From an uncultured Ruminococcus sp. (GTDB lineage Bacteria; Bacillota; Clostridia; Oscillospirales; Ruminococcaceae): a stretch of DNA of 64,000 nt. Under the pieces are notes generated by a model that was not told the DNA's origin, ran no database searches, and was given only the letters and a program-made list of their open reading frames with translations. The stretch spans positions 39,178 to 103,177 of the forward strand of contig UQKC01000001.1 in NCBI GenBank assembly GCA_900541495.1, written 5' to 3'. A program made the position numbers and the translations under genes. Below are positions 11,341 to 50,034 of the stretch, piece after piece (the stretch's first letter is position 1; the number at the start of each line of letters is the position of its first letter).

Positions 11341-11370
11341 ATACTGAATATTGAAATAACTTCACATAAA

Positions 11371-11545
11371 TGCGATAGCACTCCATCATTCGTAATGTAT
11401 GATGACAATCATACACCTATTAAATGCATGATCAGAAAACGATCGGCCAAGATCATCATCTTCGGCGGCTGCGCCTTTCAATGCTGCATAAGTCGACTTG
11501 GCAGTCTGTCAGCATCTACTATTCTATACCGCACCTCTATCTTAA
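11371..11545 (-). ncRNA. lysine riboswitch (L-box) leader of the asd operon
   Basis: minus-strand reads GATAGAGGTGCG ... TTGAAAGGCGCAGCCGCCGAAG ... TTGGCCG ... GATGGAGTGCTATC, matching L-box core elements as in B. subtilis lysC. Confidence 0.75.
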
Positions 11546-11635
11546 ATCAAGTTTTATATTATCACCATTCTTTCTATTTGTCAATAGATTTTTCCAAAAT
11601 AACATTAAATTAATATAATATCATATAAATACATT

Positions 11636-43001: not shown

Positions 43002-43005
43002 TACA

Positions 43006-43042
43006 AAAGCTCCTGTTACTGATTCGGTAACAGGAGCTTTTA
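43006..43042. terminator. bidirectional terminator (aaagctcctgttac..gtaacaggagcttt)
   Basis: perfect hairpin between convergent genes. Confidence 0.6.
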
Positions 43043-44269
43043 TTACTTTACAAAATATGATTCAAAATCTTCGCCTATTATCTCTGCAATAAGGCTGTCA
43101 TAATCAGCATGATTGGAACCGCTTTCGGTAATTACGGGAATTACCGAAATTTCAGTTCCGCATTGTCCCTTGATGATCTCAAAAGCAGTTTTGAATTTAC
43201 TGCTCGAGTCAAGCTCGCTGAATACTATTTCATTGTTATTGTAAACAACACTTTCGCTAAATTCAGCAGGATCAAAATCAATAAGAAGCGTATATCCGCT
43301 CAACTCACCCGGCTTGAATATCTCAGCTCTGCCATAAATAATATCGGCTGCGTTTGTTCGTATAAATGTTTTAGTATTATGCTCATTTGCAGCAGTCTGA
43401 ACAATATTTGCAAGCTCAATAAGAGCTTTATATCTGTTTGCATCTTTTACAGTATCGCCGAGAAGATTAAGATCGGAATTTCTGAATGTCGGGAATGTCA
43501 ATCCGCTTACAGTAATATAGTCAAAACCTGCCGCCGAAACCTCATTGGCCATATATCTGACCATTTCCTTGGTATCATCATCAAACGGCGAAAGCCACGG
43601 CTTGCCGCCCTTGTCCGCTGCGGTATCAAGCCATGTCGAGCCATCAAGCGCATGATAAGAGCCGTCACGATACTCACCGTATCGATTGTTATCCTCAAGG
43701 ATATTTAATTCAGCAATCATCTTCAATCCGCTGTTCTTTATCAAAGATGCGATCTGCTGAATTGGCATATTTCCTACAACAGCATTTTCATCTGATTTTG
43801 CCATTGTTGAAGCGGTGCTGTAATATATTTTTCCGCCTTTTGCTTTCAAAGTGACCGATACTGCTGTATATCCGTCAGCTTTTACCTGATCGAGCAATGC
43901 AGAAAACTGTGATGGATCACTTAATGCATCTTCGGAAAGCATATATGCAGTCAGTCCGGTTGAATTAATTATTTCATTAGAAGTTACAGTTTCACTCGAC
44001 TCAGCCGTCACCTCTGTGCTGTCCTCGTTTGTGTCCGATGTTTCGGCAACTTCAGAGGTCACAGCGGGCGGTGTCCACGGTTCTTTTACATTATCCGTAT
44101 TTTCATTTTCCTTGTTCAAATAATTCAATATCGGCTTGCCAACGCTGTATCCAACAAAAACAAGTGCCGCTATAACTATCAATCCCAACAGAACACGAAG
44201 CGCCCTTTTGAGCCTTTTCTTTTTTTCATAAGAATTGGTACGATAAACTTTTCTGCCTTTTTTTGACAT
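43043..44269 (-). CDS. hypothetical membrane-anchored extracytoplasmic protein (basic N-terminus, one TM, Thr/Ser/Glu-rich linker, alpha/beta domain)
   Basis: 408 aa; last gene of the rpe-rnfDEA-like operon; possibly a glycoside-hydrolase-like TIM-barrel fold (low confidence). Confidence 0.5.
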   Translation of the reverse strand: MSKKGRKVYRTNSYEKKKRLKRALRVLLGLIVIAALVFVGYSVGKPILNYLNKENENTDNVKEPWTPPAVTSEVAETSDTNEDSTEVTAESSETVTSNEIINSTGLTAYMLSEDALSDPSQFSALLDQVKADGYTAVSVTLKAKGGKIYYSTASTMAKSDENAVVGNMPIQQIASLIKNSGLKMIAELNILEDNNRYGEYRDGSYHALDGSTWLDTAADKGGKPWLSPFDDDTKEMVRYMANEVSAAGFDYITVSGLTFPTFRNSDLNLLGDTVKDANRYKALIELANIVQTAANEHNTKTFIRTNAADIIYGRAEIFKPGELSGYTLLIDFDPAEFSESVVYNNNEIVFSELDSSSKFKTAFEIIKGQCGTEISVIPVITESGSNHADYDSLIAEIIGEDFESYFVK

Positions 44270-44290
44270 TATATCCGTCCTTTCGTATAA

Positions 44291-44896
44291 TTATCTTACT
44301 GTCGTAGATGCAAGTCCGTAAAACGCCATACTTATTATGCCGATATATATCAGCGTCAAAGGATAACCTCGAAAACAGTATGGAACAGACGCATCATGAA
44401 GTCTGTCATAAACAATTGCTGTTATATATATTGCAAACATAAACCCAAGACCTGTGCCAACACCTCTGAAAATATATTCAGACAGCATCGTACAGTTCTG
44501 TGAATTAAGGAACATCGCTCCGAGAATAGCGCAGTTCAGCGCCGAAAGATGTATGAATTTCTTTATTTTCAGGAACTTCTTATTGAAAAATTTCCAAAGA
44601 ATAAGAAGTGTTATAATATAAACAATGCCAAGTATCGCAACATAAACAAACGGCTGATAAATATATGCCTGTTCATTTTTTATATCTGATCCAAGAAGGA
44701 ATTTGTCAGCAAAAAAGCCTAAAAAGCCTGTTACAACAGAGAAATACACAGCACATAAACCAAATCCGAAAATGTTTTTTCTGTTTCGTGAAACGGAAAT
44801 GAGTGTACTTGTGTCAATAGCCCTTGTAAATACCGTATTTTCAACAAAGATCAATACAAGCGATATTGAAATAAGTCTGAATAACTCTGACATCAC
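44291..44896 (-). CDS. RnfA/NqrE-family membrane protein
   Basis: ALNCAILGAMFLN...GVGTGLGF parallels RnfA ITTNCAVLGVALLN...GFGAAVGF. Confidence 0.7.
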   Translation of the reverse strand: MMSELFRLISISLVLIFVENTVFTRAIDTSTLISVSRNRKNIFGFGLCAVYFSVVTGFLGFFADKFLLGSDIKNEQAYIYQPFVYVAILGIVYIITLLILWKFFNKKFLKIKKFIHLSALNCAILGAMFLNSQNCTMLSEYIFRGVGTGLGFMFAIYITAIVYDRLHDASVPYCFRGYPLTLIYIGIISMAFYGLASTTVR

Positions 44897-44910
44897 AAGC
44901 CTACCTCCTT

Positions 44911-45528
44911 TTAATTGCTGACCTTCTTTATCAAAAGTAAAATTCCGCGCAATGCCGCCGCAAATATACCGAGAAGAATAAATCCTCCGAACGGCTGATA
45001 AAATGCTTTGAACAGCATCGGCAGAGTTATCACGTTTCCGTTTATCTCTCCCGTAGATATTATCTCTCTTATCAATCCGAAAATCAATACAACAATATCA
45101 TATCCAATGATGCCCAATATCAGATCAAGCACCATTCTGCTTTTCTTTTCTGTCATAAAAGCCGTATCCGAATGGAAAATGATGAATGAATTTGTTATAA
45201 GAAGAGGAAAATATATCCCCATATTCTGCAACGCCTGCGGAAACAGCGAGGAAATTATTATCGCCGTCGGAACATAAACAAGTGCACCGATCGCAATATA
45301 GACAATTACCCTTACCGTATAAACTAACTTCTGCGGAATAAACGATGACAGAAGCATCGTAAAGAAAGTAATCACAGAAAAAGTGAGCGCAAGTATCGCA
45401 GCATTTTTTAATGTGTTTGCTATAACTATAACGGGCGCGATCGCTGTTCCAAGCACAAGAACAAGATTGTTCCGCACCATGGCATTATATATCACAGAAC
45501 CCAGTGATTCTTTTTTTAGGTTATTCAT
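44911..45528 (-). CDS. RnfE/NqrD-family membrane protein
   Basis: MGIYFPLLITNSFII and GLIREI segments parallel RnfE LGIFIPLIVVNCIIL / GAIREI. Confidence 0.65.
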   Translation of the reverse strand: MNNLKKESLGSVIYNAMVRNNLVLVLGTAIAPVIVIANTLKNAAILALTFSVITFFTMLLSSFIPQKLVYTVRVIVYIAIGALVYVPTAIIISSLFPQALQNMGIYFPLLITNSFIIFHSDTAFMTEKKSRMVLDLILGIIGYDIVVLIFGLIREIISTGEINGNVITLPMLFKAFYQPFGGFILLGIFAAALRGILLLIKKVSN

Positions 45529-46525
45529 TGCTCAGACCGCTTTCATCAGTTTTTTTAGTTTTTTCTGCTGCCGCAGCTCTTTTCTTCTTTGCATCGGAAA
45601 TTATCTTAGCAAAAGAAAGCATCTTTCTGTCCAGTTCAATTCCGAATGGTGCGGCAATTACCACTGCATAAATTATTGGATTTTCCGCTCCTGCATAGAA
45701 TCTGAAAATAAGCGTCAAAAATCCCGTGATAAGTCCGAGAATAAGCCTTGACGACCTTGTCTTCGGCAATGTACGATAATCACACGAGAGAAATATCATT
45801 CCGAATATCATCATACCACTGCAAAGCACGGATAAAGTATATTTCGTGTCAAATCCGCAGTAAATAAGCGTTCCGATAACAACTACAGCGAACTGCGAGC
45901 AAAATGAAATAGCAGATATAGAGCGGCGAAGCATAAGAAAAATCGCCGTAATTATGAACAGAATTATAAATCCTGTACCCATAGGTCCGCAGAATTTACC
46001 GACCAAAAGATCAATTATCGAACTTGAAGCCGCATCATTAGACAAAGCTACACTCTTTGACATTGACTGAAACAATGATGTGTTCAGCAGTTCTTCCGAT
46101 GAAAGACTCAAATGCACAGCAGGACGCGGATAGTTCAGCATCTCCGTTGGGAAGCATATCGAACTGAACAAAAACGACACAGCAGCACCGTTAAATATCT
46201 CGTTTCCCCTGCCGCCGAATGCGTGTTTACAGATAATTATTGCAAACAGATCAGCCGTCACTACCGCATAAAACGGCACAGCGGCAGACATCATCAAAGC
46301 TATCGTCAAACCTGTGACAATAGTTGAGATTTCAGCCTTTACCCTTACCCTGCCTCTTAGTTTATAGCATATCATATCCGTCAGCAAACATACAGCAACA
46401 GAAACAATAATTATCATCGCTGCTCTTATGCCGTAATAATATACCGCAATTACAGCAGGAATAAGCAAAGCTATGAGCATATCTGCCGAGATCAGATTAT
46501 CCGATTTTGAATTTATACGCTCCAT
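45521..46525 (-). CDS. RnfD/NqrB-family membrane protein
   Basis: N-terminal half aligns well to RnfD (ALLIPAVIAVYYYGIRAAMIIIVSVAVCL...KHAFGGRGNEIFNGAAVSFLF); no obvious SGAT flavinylation motif. Confidence 0.75.
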   Translation of the reverse strand: MERINSKSDNLISADMLIALLIPAVIAVYYYGIRAAMIIIVSVAVCLLTDMICYKLRGRVRVKAEISTIVTGLTIALMMSAAVPFYAVVTADLFAIIICKHAFGGRGNEIFNGAAVSFLFSSICFPTEMLNYPRPAVHLSLSSEELLNTSLFQSMSKSVALSNDAASSSIIDLLVGKFCGPMGTGFIILFIITAIFLMLRRSISAISFCSQFAVVVIGTLIYCGFDTKYTLSVLCSGMMIFGMIFLSCDYRTLPKTRSSRLILGLITGFLTLIFRFYAGAENPIIYAVVIAAPFGIELDRKMLSFAKIISDAKKKRAAAAEKTKKTDESGLSNE

Positions 46526-46532
46526 AACAAAG

Positions 46533-47180
46533 TCAATCTCTCAATAATTCAACAGCTTTTTTCATATCCTCCGCACCGAAAAGATATGAACCCGCAACAA
46601 GAATGCTTGCGCCGTTCTCTTTGACCTTGGGAGCTGTCTTATCATTTATTCCGCCGTCAACTTGAATAGGAACAGTCATATTGCGCTTGTCCAATTCACC
46701 TTTAAGTTCTGCTATCTTATCAAGCGTTTCGGTAATGAAGCCTTGTCCGCCGAAACCTGGTTCAACTGTCATAACAAGTATCATATCTATCTTATCCAAA
46801 TAAGGATAAAGTACCGAAACGGGAGTATTCGGCTTAACGGAAACACCTGCTTTTTTACCATAAGAATGAATAAGGTCAATGACCTCTCCGCAGTCCGAGC
46901 CTGCCTCGTAATGGAAAGTAATGATATCAGCGCCCGATTCGGCAAACTGCTTGATATACTTTATAGGATCAACTATCATAAGATGTACATCAAGAACGAT
47001 ATCAGTAACCTTTGAAACGGACTTCAGTACAGGAATACCGTAACTGATATTATTTACAAAAACACCGTCCATAACATCAAAATGTATGTAGTCGCAGCCT
47101 GCCTTTTCCGCACGTTTAATATCACGTTCGAGATTACAGAGATCTGCACTCAAAATTGAAGCTGAAATAATCGTATCCAC
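46533..47180 (-). CDS. rpe: ribulose-phosphate 3-epimerase
   Basis: SILSADL, DVMDGVFV and VDGG motifs; start at GTG 47180 after AAGGAG. Confidence 0.85.
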   Translation of the reverse strand: MDTIISASILSADLCNLERDIKRAEKAGCDYIHFDVMDGVFVNNISYGIPVLKSVSKVTDIVLDVHLMIVDPIKYIKQFAESGADIITFHYEAGSDCGEVIDLIHSYGKKAGVSVKPNTPVSVLYPYLDKIDMILVMTVEPGFGGQGFITETLDKIAELKGELDKRNMTVPIQVDGGINDKTAPKVKENGASILVAGSYLFGAEDMKKAVELLRD

Positions 47181-47457
47181 AATAAATCTCCTTGAAAACA
47201 TAATCATTCATTTAACATTATATATCATTGTCAAAAAAAAATCAAGGTCAAATGCTAAAAATATAAGCATTTGACCTTAATCTATATAAAAACGGCTGCA
47301 AAATCAGTTTTTTATAGCCAAAGCTCCCCTGCGGATATTCTCACATTAAATGAAAATACCACTCTGACCTACCGTATTGCTTATGCCGTATATTTTCATT
47401 CTATGCAGCATAACGCAAAAAGCCACAAGTCAGTTTGTCCGCAGAAAAAGAGTAATA

Positions 47458-48627
47458 TCAGCTGTAAAGAAGCTTTTTCAAGTCAGTATCTCCCGCAAAC
47501 GAAGAAACATTGTATAAAACAAGCGCTTCGTCATAATCCGATACATCAATAATTTTTTTATACGATATCTGAATGTACCGCATATCGATCAGAGTTATCT
47601 CCGAATAGTGATCCGTCAGAAATTGTGAGTAGCAGTGTGCATAGGAATCCTTGATTATAAGAAGTTTTCCGCCCTCATTTCCCGTTTTGATAGTTACAAT
47701 GGGCGCATTTGTTCCAAGGAAAGACGCGTATTTATCCTTTACATCAAGATAATCACGATAGTAGATGCTGTCGCTCACTTCGGGGTCAGAACCGAATACC
47801 TGAGTTACCTCGACCGTCATCGGCTTATCACCGTCAGGATCGTGATAATAGTCCATCGTATCATCCTTGACGCTTGTGTTGAGCGTCTTTGAGTAGAACG
47901 TTCCCTTAAAGCTGTCACTCGCGTGTTCAACATCATAATAGGAAAGTTCGTGCGGAACATAACCCATTTTCTCACCTGCCGCAGCATAAGCATAATATGC
48001 CCCAAGCGATGTCCAGTGGTGATCCGTTCTGTAATAGATATACTCGTTCTTGTGCGAACTTAATACATCATAAACATCTATCCTGGTTATATCATCATCA
48101 AGACCCGAATAAACATAATCAATAAAGCTGCGCTGGTCAAGCTCGGGATAAAAATATGAAAGCTCATCTTTGTAAAATTCAGCCGATGTAGGAACGAGCA
48201 TAGTGTAGACCGGGATATTATTCTCTTTGCTGAATTCGTTTATCGCTGTAATACTCTTGTCAACATCACTGTAATCGGGTTCGCCGACCTTTTCGATTAG
48301 CCTGTCTTTGAGGACATATATACCGCCTATCTCTTTCTTTCCGACAGCAGTTTCAATACCCGATTTCAATTCGAGCCAGCCAACTCTTCCCGAAAAATGA
48401 TCGGCAACATATTTTTCAAGCTTATCTGTATAAGTTCTGTCAAACCACGTTTTGGCAGAGAGTTTTGGCTTTCGTTCGAGCGATTTGTTTTCAAGCTCAG
48501 AGAATGTTTCCTTTGGTTTAAATATCGTTATGAGCGCAAATATTATGAAAAATCCGAAAAATATGATACAGCTTACGATCTCAATAATATGGCTGCTCTT
48601 CTTATCTGACTTTTTTATTGTTCTCAC
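47458..48627 (-). CDS. DHHW family protein (AlgX/AlgJ/PatB-like SGNH-type O-acetyltransferase partner)
   Basis: N-terminal TM and the motif YRTDHHWTSLGAYYAY. Confidence 0.7.
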   Translation of the reverse strand: MRTIKKSDKKSSHIIEIVSCIIFFGFFIIFALITIFKPKETFSELENKSLERKPKLSAKTWFDRTYTDKLEKYVADHFSGRVGWLELKSGIETAVGKKEIGGIYVLKDRLIEKVGEPDYSDVDKSITAINEFSKENNIPVYTMLVPTSAEFYKDELSYFYPELDQRSFIDYVYSGLDDDITRIDVYDVLSSHKNEYIYYRTDHHWTSLGAYYAYAAAGEKMGYVPHELSYYDVEHASDSFKGTFYSKTLNTSVKDDTMDYYHDPDGDKPMTVEVTQVFGSDPEVSDSIYYRDYLDVKDKYASFLGTNAPIVTIKTGNEGGKLLIIKDSYAHCYSQFLTDHYSEITLIDMRYIQISYKKIIDVSDYDEALVLYNVSSFAGDTDLKKLLYS

Positions 48628-48630
48628 CTC

Positions 48631-50034
48631 TTAAAAACGGAAATATAAGAATGGATTATAGCTTGCATCAACAAGATAAGCCGTGCAGTTCACAAGTATA
48701 AGAAGCTGTGCCGCTATCGCTGCAATTTTAAGCTGCATGGGCTTCTGCTGCTGAAGCTTGTCTGTAAATTTTGTAAAAATATCCGTTGATGCAAATATAC
48801 ACAAAGCAAATATTACAGCGTTCGATGCAAGCAGGTAAAGCGCCGTGCTGTCGCCCAATATTCCGTTAGCGCCGAACATTGCACCGATAAAATGCCAAGC
48901 GTCTGTAAGTGTATTCGTATCAAACAATACCCAGCCTAAAACCACTAAAATAAAGGTATAAAGCGTACTTACTGCCTTTGGAAGCTTTGCAAGTATCTTT
49001 CCCCAGCCAAGTCTTTCAATAACAATGAGAACACCAAAGTAGAATCCCCAAAGCATAAAGTTCCAACTTGAACCGTGCCATAAGCCTGTGAGTGACCATA
49101 CAATGAGCAGGTTAATAATAGTCCTTGCCGAACCTTTGCGGTTGCCGCCGAGCGGAATATAAACATACTCTCTGAACCAGCTTCCAAGTGTGATATGCCA
49201 CCTGCGCCAGAATTCGCTTATGCTTCTCGAAAGATACGGGTGATCAAAATTTATCGGGAAATTAAATCCGAGCATTTTTCCAAGTCCGATAGCCATATCG
49301 GAATAACCCGAAAAGTCAAAGTATATCTGGAATGTAAATGCCAAAATTCCAAGCCATGCTGTTGCCGCAGATATCTCGCCATAGTCCATAACCTTTACCT
49401 GCGTCCATACAAGACCGATGTTGTTCGCAAGGAGAACCTTTTTCGCAAGTCCTTTAAGGAACTTGCATATTCCCTCACTTACCTTTGAAATGCTGATAGT
49501 TCGGCAATCGATCTCTCGCGCAACATCTTCATAACGAACGATAGGTCCTGCAACGATCTGCGGGAAAAGCGTAACATAAGCCGCAAAGCTGAAAAAATTC
49601 TTCTGTACCTTGATTTTCTTCATATAAAGATCGATCGTGTAAGACATACTCTGGAACGTATAGAACGAAATACCAATAGGAAGTGGAAGCTGTGGGTCGG
49701 TGATATGCAAACCGAACACGGAATTAATTGTTGTAATTATGAACGAACTGTATTTGAAAACTCCGAGCAAACTCAGGTTCATTATTACTGAAACAAGCAG
49801 GCATACTGTCTGAATGTTTCGCTTGTCATTGAATTTATTAATAAACAAACCTGCCGTATAGTCTATCGCCGTTGAAATAAGCATTATGACCACATATTTC
49901 GGTTCGCCCCATGCATAGAAAAACAATCCCGTAAGGAGAATAAAGATATTTCTGAACTTATCAGGAAGTATGAAATACAAGATCATTGTTATCGGCAAAA
50001 AGTAAAACAAGAATACTAAACTTGAAAAAACCAT
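48631..50034 (-). CDS. MBOAT family membrane-bound O-acyltransferase (AlgI/DltB/PatA-like)
   Basis: 467-aa polytopic protein with MBOAT conserved His region (WHGSSWNF..) and typical N-terminus. Confidence 0.85.
   Translation of the reverse strand: MVFSSLVFLFYFLPITMILYFILPDKFRNIFILLTGLFFYAWGEPKYVVIMLISTAIDYTAGLFINKFNDKRNIQTVCLLVSVIMNLSLLGVFKYSSFIITTINSVFGLHITDPQLPLPIGISFYTFQSMSYTIDLYMKKIKVQKNFFSFAAYVTLFPQIVAGPIVRYEDVAREIDCRTISISKVSEGICKFLKGLAKKVLLANNIGLVWTQVKVMDYGEISAATAWLGILAFTFQIYFDFSGYSDMAIGLGKMLGFNFPINFDHPYLSRSISEFWRRWHITLGSWFREYVYIPLGGNRKGSARTIINLLIVWSLTGLWHGSSWNFMLWGFYFGVLIVIERLGWGKILAKLPKAVSTLYTFILVVLGWVLFDTNTLTDAWHFIGAMFGANGILGDSTALYLLASNAVIFALCIFASTDIFTKFTDKLQQQKPMQLKIAAIAAQLLILVNCTAYLVDASYNPFLYFRF

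Follow-up and report, generated by a model that had tools for sequence, protein, structure and literature searches.

The 64,000-nucleotide stretch of genomic DNA from an uncultured Ruminococcus sp. considered here (contig UQKC01000001.1, positions 39,178 to 103,177, hereafter "the window") carries on its minus strand a compact cluster in which rpe is followed by three genes whose products are related to RnfD, RnfE and RnfA, the membrane subunits of the Rnf complex, and by a gene coding for a 408-residue DUF4015 protein. As set out below, the three membrane proteins have lost the sites of the redox cofactors of Rnf while retaining much of its presumed ion path, and they may constitute the core of a cation-conducting module that acts with the DUF4015 protein, a putative hydrolase, on a glycan of the cell envelope. 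The features of the locus, in the order in which they would be transcribed, are the following (FMN, flavin mononucleotide; RBS, ribosome-binding site; ORF, open reading frame; TM, transmembrane; TIM, triosephosphate isomerase):

47233-47277, upstream of rpe: terminator of the DHHW gene, hairpin plus T-run
47217..47245, minus strand: sigma-70-like promoter (TTGATT-17-TATAAT), candidate for rpe-D-E-A-DUF4015, overlapping the T-run of the upstream terminator
46533..47180, minus strand: rpe, ribulose-phosphate 3-epimerase, GTG start with AAGGAG RBS; the longest ORF extends to 47207
45521..46525, minus strand: RnfD-like membrane protein, 334 aa, PF03116, without covalent-FMN motif
44911..45528, minus strand: RnfE/NqrD-like membrane protein, 205 aa, PF02508, zero cysteines
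44291..44896, minus strand: RnfA/NqrE-like membrane protein, 200-201 aa, PF02508; gene callers start at ATG 44893
43043..44269, minus strand: DUF4015 protein, 408 aa, PF13200, predicted TM-anchored TIM barrel, glycoside-hydrolase-like
43003..43043, bidirectional: intrinsic terminator with a 17-bp stem, closing both the operon and a convergent rlmL-like gene

The ORF scan returned these five genes as co-directional, minus-strand ORFs separated by 7 nt (rpe/D), overlapping by 8 nt (D/E) and separated again by 14-17 nt, depending on the choice of start (E/A), and by 21 nt (A/408-aa gene), so that the coordinates and the tight packing already described for the locus, with the 7- and 21-nt gaps at its two ends, are confirmed. 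From the promoter-like site to the strong terminator, rpe-D-E-A-DUF4015 appears to form one transcription unit.

The identification of the three central genes with rnfD, rnfE and rnfA, made in the original prediction, is upheld by Pfam profiles, by the best matches among solved structures and, in the case of D, by the modelled fold. The RnfD-like protein matches PF03116 (NQR2_RnfD_RnfE) at 7.2e-54 with 183.6 bits (gathering cut-off 27.7), while the RnfE-like and RnfA-like proteins match PF02508 (Rnf-Nqr; gathering cut-off 23.8) at 1.5e-23 with 84.2 bits and at 2.8e-25 with 89.8 bits, respectively. The best solved-structure sequence match of the former is RnfD (83 bits, as opposed to 30 bits to NqrB); those of the 205-aa and 201-aa proteins are RnfE/NqrD and RnfA/NqrE, as found in the Rnf complexes of C. 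tetanomorphum, A. woodii and A. vinelandii and in the NQR of V. cholerae. The AlphaFold model of the RnfD-like protein (pLDDT, the predicted local distance difference test, 72.6) superimposes on solved RnfD chains with TM-scores of 0.75-0.81 at 22-25% identity, the next folds after RnfD and NqrB being those of urea transporters and Amt/Rh ammonium channels, and the KxxFGG and FNxAA motifs are conserved. These concordant matches, which lie far beyond chance, show that the observed homology with Rnf is correct and, as far as sequences and a model can tell, D, E and A are true homologues of the Rnf/Nqr membrane subunits. The distance from the characterized subunits is, nevertheless, considerable, given that the scores against the NCBIfam models are 130.1 bits for rnfD (TIGR01946; cut-off 207.05), 51.5 bits for rnfE (TIGR01948; cut-off 213.4) and 75.4 bits for rnfA (TIGR01943; cut-off 229.3), and only 52-68 bits for NqrB, NqrD and NqrE, whose cut-offs range from 235 to 414.

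Related loci were collected by a one-genome-per-species scan, which yielded 51 loci, by a metagenome scan, which yielded 80 further loci, and by inspecting the gene context of family members; in total, 139 related loci were inspected, these counts including some near-identical metagenome contigs. In parallel, 1.84 billion representative proteins were searched with a profile, and 382 RnfD-like clusters emerged at E<=1e-30.

The covalent flavin and the intramembrane [2Fe-2S] sites belong to the canonical electron path of Rnf (PMC12174285), and neither is preserved here. No flavinylation motif of the type [ST]G[AS][ST] or TxAT is found anywhere in the RnfD-like protein, which bears out the earlier remark that an SGAT-type motif is not apparent; the FMN-bearing Thr of the A. 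vinelandii RnfD TGAT aligns to a Val, this position is not conserved among 15 close homologues, none of the best 150 family representatives has the motif at the canonical position, and the motif-less RnfD-like proteins make up at least 150 representative clusters. As to the [2Fe-2S] cluster, both ligands are replaced in the RnfE-like protein (Ala31 and Ser114), which contains no Cys at all; in the RnfA-like protein the first ligand has become Ser30 and the second is retained as Cys122, so that three of the four cluster cysteines are lost overall. The replacements are themselves conserved, since over the 51 orthologous loci Ser114 is present in 92% and Ser30 in 96% of the cases, Cys122 likewise reaching 96%. 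The full set of four cysteines occurs in none of 128 related loci, some lineages retaining two of four. With the FMN motif and three of the four cluster cysteines lost, the flavin and [2Fe-2S] sites of the canonical path cannot form as known.

The remaining subunits of Rnf are also missing. RnfC, RnfG and RnfB were said at the outset to be absent, and this proved to be the case for the operon and for the entire window, the genes flanking the operon being unrelated to Rnf; the scan of the 64-kb window disclosed no RnfC-like, mecA-like or ferredoxin-type CxxCxxCxxxC ORF in real frames, and genes for NqrF and NqrC are absent from both operon and window. A 119-codon stop-free frame containing a CxxCxxCxxxC string (45128-45484, minus strand), which could have concealed an iron-sulphur (Fe-S) gene, is an alternative frame within the RnfE-like gene and was judged to be due to chance, as its start context is missing and its similarity to RnfC-like proteins has E>1. 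Furthermore, RnfG and RnfB are absent from all 139 related loci. The possibility that an RnfG domain could be hidden in the long C-terminal tails of certain D-, E- and C-like proteins reaching up to 1018 aa in length was also considered and discarded, only the Pfam core domains being found in these proteins. The tails themselves are 300-600 aa long, charged and of low complexity (e.g., locus L049, 9947-11440; proteins P0310, P0296 and P0280; locus L102, 4011-7000).

In the E/A pair, ion handling seems to have been kept to a greater extent than redox chemistry. According to the proposal made for A. woodii, Na+ passes through RnfA/E beside the cluster, along a path consisting of the RnfE Arg67-Glu115 gate, the backbone carbonyls at the TM4a/b break and RnfA Asn112 (PMC11889175). 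The equivalent of RnfE Arg67 (Arg73 in the window) is kept in 108 of 133 loci, that of Glu115 (Asp121 in the window) is Glu or Asp in 80 of 133, and the Asn preceding the lost Cys of E is kept in 111 of 133; the equivalent of RnfA Asn112 (Asn121 in the window) is found in 124 of 128 loci, and an Arg-Glu motif of E (Arg154-Glu155 in the window) is almost universal (132/133 and 128/133, respectively). Selection on the cluster is evident from the ratio of nonsynonymous to synonymous substitution rates (dN/dS) which, when calculated against five orthologues, ranges from 0.03 to 0.16 for D, E, A and the DUF4015 gene and from 0.02 to 0.08 for rpe, while dozens of invariant residues remain in the homologue alignments. 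Such low ratios indicate that the D, E, A and DUF4015 proteins are functional and under strong purifying selection.

D-E-A is present in all of the 51 loci of the species-level scan, and its ORFs are intact across the 139 loci, which stem from many species. The 51 loci belong to metagenome-assembled genomes (MAGs) of uncultured Ruminococcus, Oscillospiraceae and Clostridia with a single exception, labelled Prevotella. The exception (L038, JAMPIC010000014.1) has full Oscillospiraceae-type synteny from comEC to rlmL, and its label is probably a binning error. Cultured carriers include Ruminococcus champanellensis, Massilioclostridium coli and Clostridium facile. The co-occurrence of the D/E/A core with the 408-aa gene, envisaged in the original prediction, turned out to be recurrent across related loci: in 82 of the 89 loci having enough flank the A-like gene is immediately followed by the DUF4015 gene, and their gap does not exceed 60 nt in 91 of 104 loci. 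The D-E gap is equally constrained (<=60 nt in 133/135 loci), and no gene is ever found between D and E, the position of rnfG. The median gaps are -4 nt (C-D), -8 nt (D-E), 10 nt (E-A) and 22 nt (A-DUF4015).

The commonest layout consists of rpe, a divergent mecA-like gene (PF05389), an RnfC-like gene, D, E, A and DUF4015. Thus, the metagenome loci have an RnfC-like gene in 38 of 41 cases, rpe in 41/41, the mecA-like gene in 19/41 and DUF4015 in 38/43, whereas the loci of the window's clade with enough flank have rpe upstream in 39 of 41 cases and DUF4015 downstream in 44 of 46 but never an RnfC-like gene (0/41). It follows that the notion of a stand-alone D/E/A core holds for the window's clade but not for most of its relatives, and since these carry the RnfC-like gene immediately upstream of D, the three-gene core is a four-subunit variant in its most reduced state. 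The RnfC-like protein of the relatives comprises RnfC_N, SLBB and two-cluster ferredoxin domains and scores 201 bits against TIGR01945 (cut-off 246). All 53 complete copies retain two CxxCxxCxxxC (4Fe-4S) motifs and none has the GxGGAxFP loop, the FMN/NADH site of the NuoF/RnfC family; the C. tetanomorphum RnfC sequence GMGGATFPT aligns here to DEYDGKPLY. The residual Fe-S domain, together with the scattered surviving ligand cysteines, suggests that the family derives from a redox-active Rnf and is not a primitive, pre-redox form.

The mecA-like gene, absent in the window's clade, codes for ~190 aa and matches PF05389 mainly over the C-terminal, ClpC-binding half; examples in which it stands divergently between rpe and the cluster are found in loci L046 (8401-8961), L049 (8284-8889) and L058 (7383-7946). 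Being oppositely oriented, it implies that rpe is not co-transcribed with the cluster in most lineages, and rpe, which was considered as a functional partner and is a conserved neighbour still, was set aside because of its separate transcription unit there. The intergenic regions upstream of the cluster in the divergent-mecA loci, inspected for a sporulation-type promoter, are short, unalignable and uninformative.

The 408-aa protein is identified by PF13200 (DUF4015; 2.3e-12, 47.1 bits against a gathering cut-off of 27). It begins with a tail containing 11 Lys/Arg in residues 1-24, continues with a single TM helix (26-44) and a 47-residue linker rich in Thr, Ser and Glu, and ends with a folded domain, an order that gives a predicted N-in, C-out topology. 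Its model (pLDDT 75 overall, >90 over most of the barrel) consists of alternating strands and helices, and the top Foldseek matches are Cwp19 (5oq2, 7.7e-10), the glycoside hydrolase (GH) domain of PgaB (6au1, 7.4e-9) and GH20 hexosaminidases; the model is that of a TIM barrel, tethered by a TM helix and similar to Cwp19, a lytic transglycosylase (PMC6016235), and to PgaB. DUF4015 occurs fused to a YkyA domain, paralleling cell-wall polysaccharide deacetylases (PMC12700454). Of the initial description of this protein as membrane-anchored, extracytoplasmic and of unknown function, the first two attributes stand, by virtue of the helix 26-44, while the third is to be replaced, in that the protein is a predicted glycoside-hydrolase-like DUF4015 barrel and a near-invariant partner of D/E/A. 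Asp193 and Asp215, both of them acidic and invariant, are located after beta strands, the loop 193-225 being modelled at pLDDT <50. Among 97 distinct orthologues the mean frequency of the top residue is 0.45-0.48 in tail and TM helix, 0.44 in the barrel and 0.23 in the linker, with a recurring K-[IV]-K-R-[YH]..[IM]-Y-R motif in the tail and a juxtamembrane G-[YWF]....P. A tail and a helix conserved like the barrel are not what one usually sees in a passive anchor, which is why their docking to the D/E/A core is proposed.

As to the remainder of the locus, rpe is identified by PF00834 (Ribul_P_3_epim; 3.9e-71) and by TIGR01163, whose equivalog cut-off of 212.6 is exceeded (263.8 bits). The GTG at 47180, preceded at a distance of 7 nt by AAGGAG, is probably the real start, and the gene has been called as 215-222 aa in identical contigs elsewhere. 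An Rfam scan of the window found no riboswitch or RNA leader upstream of the operon; its sole match is a lysine riboswitch at 11368-11547 (minus strand, 104.9 bits). The flanking genes code for MBOAT and DHHW/AlgX-like proteins upstream and for RlmL-like and class A penicillin-binding proteins (PBP) downstream, none of them being an Rnf subunit. The former pair (47458-50034, minus strand), directly upstream of rpe, comprises an MBOAT of the DltB/AlgI-like type (467 aa) and a DHHW/AlgX-like SGNH protein (389 aa), the signature of an extracytoplasmic glycan O-acylation system, and is syntenic with rpe-D-E-A-DUF4015 across most of the window's clade, with a terminator in between. Beside the PBP gene, the interval 32400-39000 of the window has a low GC content (0.32-0.37) and encodes a Zot-like assembly ATPase and a rolling-circle replication initiator (plus-strand ORFs 34763-35632 and 35737-36726 being examples within it); the interval resembles an integrated filamentous phage of inovirus-like type. 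Otherwise identical contigs have a GH4 gene or another Rep_trans element at the same site, which marks it as a strain-variable insertion hotspot.

What could be the function of a Rnf membrane core deprived of its electron path? The lost cofactor sites, the kept ion residues and the purifying selection support the suggestion, already contained in the original prediction, of a non-canonical and possibly non-redox module for ion translocation or transport. More specifically, the explanation that we favour, to which we assign a probability of roughly 0.45, is that of a non-redox, cation-conducting, Rnf-derived module which, in concert with the membrane-tethered DUF4015 hydrolase, acts on a glycan of the cell wall or surface. 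D, E and A would be the membrane core of a complex that has abandoned electron transfer, and the E/A pair would still bind a cation (Na+ or H+) and pass it by alternating access, as we infer from the retention of the Arg/acidic gate pair and of the asparagines at the two broken helices flanking the former cluster. With the redox input gone, the ions could only run down their gradient, so that the module would not be a pump but either a conformational device, gated or driven by ions, or a carrier coupled to cations. The four proteins would work as one complex, in which the basic tail and TM helix of the DUF4015 protein would dock into D/E/A, topologically in place of the TM-anchored RnfG or RnfB, while its extracytoplasmic domain, by analogy with Cwp19 and PgaB, might cut or remodel a cell-wall or surface glycan of the N-acetylglucosamine (GlcNAc) type. 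The membrane module could then control, position or energise the extracellular hydrolase, or else move its substrate or product. A more far-reaching version, for the time being doubtful, would make of this former respiratory ion pump an envelope machine driven by a signal or a gradient, the downflow of Na+ or H+ through D/E/A being turned into conformational work by which the DUF4015 hydrolase is activated, positioned or supplied, with the relatives perhaps also sensing the cytoplasmic redox state through their Fe-S RnfC-like subunit.

The simplest alternative is that D/E/A moves a solute or an ion on its own, as a secondary transporter or channel, and that DUF4015 and rpe are its neighbours for regulatory or historical reasons. 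Possible substrates are a cation, a small neutral molecule, handled by the urea/ammonium-transporter-like fold of D, or a sugar-derived compound, in line with the pentose-phosphate link. This premise is favoured by the folds that come after RnfD and NqrB in the comparison of the D model, by the kept ion-path residues, by the transporter-like inverted-repeat architecture of RnfA/E (PMC12174285) and by rpe, the most constant neighbour and apparently co-transcribed in the window. It is, however, unlikely in our estimation, inasmuch as the DUF4015 gene remains operonic with A down to ~25-30% identity of the D protein, with a membrane anchor conserved like a functional surface, whereas it is rpe that a mecA-like gene splits from the cluster in most lineages, and neither a riboswitch nor a substrate-specific regulator lies upstream.

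The system could, on the other hand, still be redox-active, by virtue of a non-covalent flavin in D, of the 4Fe-4S clusters of the C-like protein in the relatives, or of RnfC/G/B (ApbE) borrowed from a canonical rnf elsewhere in the genome. Both 4Fe-4S motifs are indeed intact in the 53 complete RnfC-like copies, Cys122 of the A-like protein is kept at 96% in the window's clade and two of the four cysteines survive in some lineages; but the same clade has no C-like gene (0/41) and a Cys-free E-like protein, no locus has the full ligand set, the flavinylation motif is absent family-wide, the C-like proteins are without the NADH/FMN loop, and neither G nor B occurs in the 139 loci. Subunit swapping between paralogues so diverged (D is 22-25% identical to solved RnfD) would also be difficult to envisage, and we regard a persisting redox function as improbable. 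Even less can be said for a functionless, decaying rnf remnant: gene decay, in its early stages, would also remove subunits and cofactor ligands, yet ORFs that are intact in all 139 loci, dN/dS values of 0.03-0.16, comparable to the 0.02-0.08 of rpe, dozens of invariant residues and replacement residues conserved as strictly as Ser114 (92%) and Ser30 (96%) are not what decay leaves behind, and the analysis of selection effectively refutes this possibility, to which hardly any credence can be given.

Several points weigh against the favoured explanation of a cation-conducting module coupled to a glycan hydrolase. The equivalent of RnfE Glu115 is acidic in only ~60% of the loci, and that of RnfA Glu88, which belongs to the gate network proposed for Na+, has been lost, mostly in favour of Leu or Tyr. 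The sequence of the D-like protein is compatible with a non-covalent binding of riboflavin, which it may possess, and a canonical rnfCDGEAB may sit elsewhere in the genome, the absence established here being that in the 64-kb window. The confidence of both AlphaFold models is moderate (pLDDT 73-75) and the most conserved loop of the DUF4015 protein (193-225) falls below 50; to our knowledge, no activity has been demonstrated for any DUF4015 protein. A physical complex between D/E/A and DUF4015 is proposed from synteny and conservation, and the deep synteny with rpe (39/41 and 41/41) and with the divergent mecA-like gene is left unaccounted for by this explanation as by its rivals.

Full-text searches of the literature found no account of a D/E/A or C/D/E/A cluster lacking both G and B, nor of any link to DUF4015. 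The proteins have nonetheless been named, since RefSeq/PGAP designates the D-like product "RnfABCDGE type electron transport complex subunit D" in R. champanellensis, M. coli, C. facile and many MAGs; as a consequence, metabolic reconstructions of abundant gut and rumen degraders of fibre and starch that rely on counting rnf genes may credit these organisms with an energy-conserving Rnf which they may lack. A natural, cofactor-free Rnf/Nqr core could, furthermore, serve to test ion conduction uncoupled from electron transfer, in a field in which both the route of the ions (RnfD/NqrB or RnfA/E-NqrD/E) and the gating by redox events are still debated (PMC11889175 as opposed to the Nqr work cited there). 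The cluster would show that a respiratory complex can be repurposed, and it gives the large domain family DUF4015 a defined membrane partner. If the more far-reaching version of the explanation is true, it would represent a new class of cell-wall remodelling coupled to an ion-motive force and widespread in gut Clostridia of the Oscillospiraceae/Ruminococcaceae type.

Among the known systems, the closest relative is clostridial Rnf. With the RnfCDGEAB complexes (C. tetanomorphum, 7zc6; A. woodii, 9eri; A. vinelandii, 8ahx) the cluster shares the gene order D..E-A, the fold of D, the Arg/acidic gate pair and the half-helix asparagines in E/A and, in the relatives, an RnfC homologue with two 4Fe-4S motifs. 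It differs from them in having neither RnfG nor RnfB, no FMN-Thr motif in D and, in the window's clade, one of the four [2Fe-2S] cysteines, in its C-like subunit, which is either absent or devoid of GxGGAxFP, and in scores that are under all the curated Rnf cut-offs; the slot after A, where rnfB sits in Rnf operons, is occupied by the DUF4015 gene. Judged from its sequences, the cluster therefore departs from Rnf in every defining feature that was compared (subunit set, flavinylation site, cluster ligands and NCBIfam cut-offs), while its membership in the Rnf/Nqr membrane-subunit superfamily (PF03116, PF02508) is an observed fact.

The homologous membrane core B/D/E is found also in Na+-NQR (NqrABCDEF of Vibrio cholerae), and a precedent for the loss of cofactors within the superfamily is offered by NqrA, a homologue of RnfC without redox cofactors (PMC12174285). 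Unlike the cluster described here, which has none of these elements, NQR possesses covalent FMN on NqrB and NqrC, the Fe-S centre of NqrD/E and the electron input through NqrF. The folds nearest to the 408-aa barrel are those of C. difficile Cwp19 (5oq2) and of the GH domain of PgaB (6au1), two proteins that act on GlcNAc-containing surface polymers; with respect to these, the 408-aa protein is 10-12% identical, has a TM-score of ~0.5, belongs to another Pfam family and, where they have cell-wall-binding repeats or a lipoprotein/deacetylase context, relies for its anchorage on an N-terminal TM helix preceded by a conserved basic tail. Finally, FtsEX is an ATP-driven, transporter-derived complex that has given up the transport of its ancestral substrate and governs extracellular cell-wall hydrolases by conformational change. 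Its resemblance to the arrangement proposed here would be a functional analogy only, the folds being unrelated, and the only plausible drive of D/E/A-DUF4015 would be an ion gradient or, in the relatives, the Fe-S C-like subunit.

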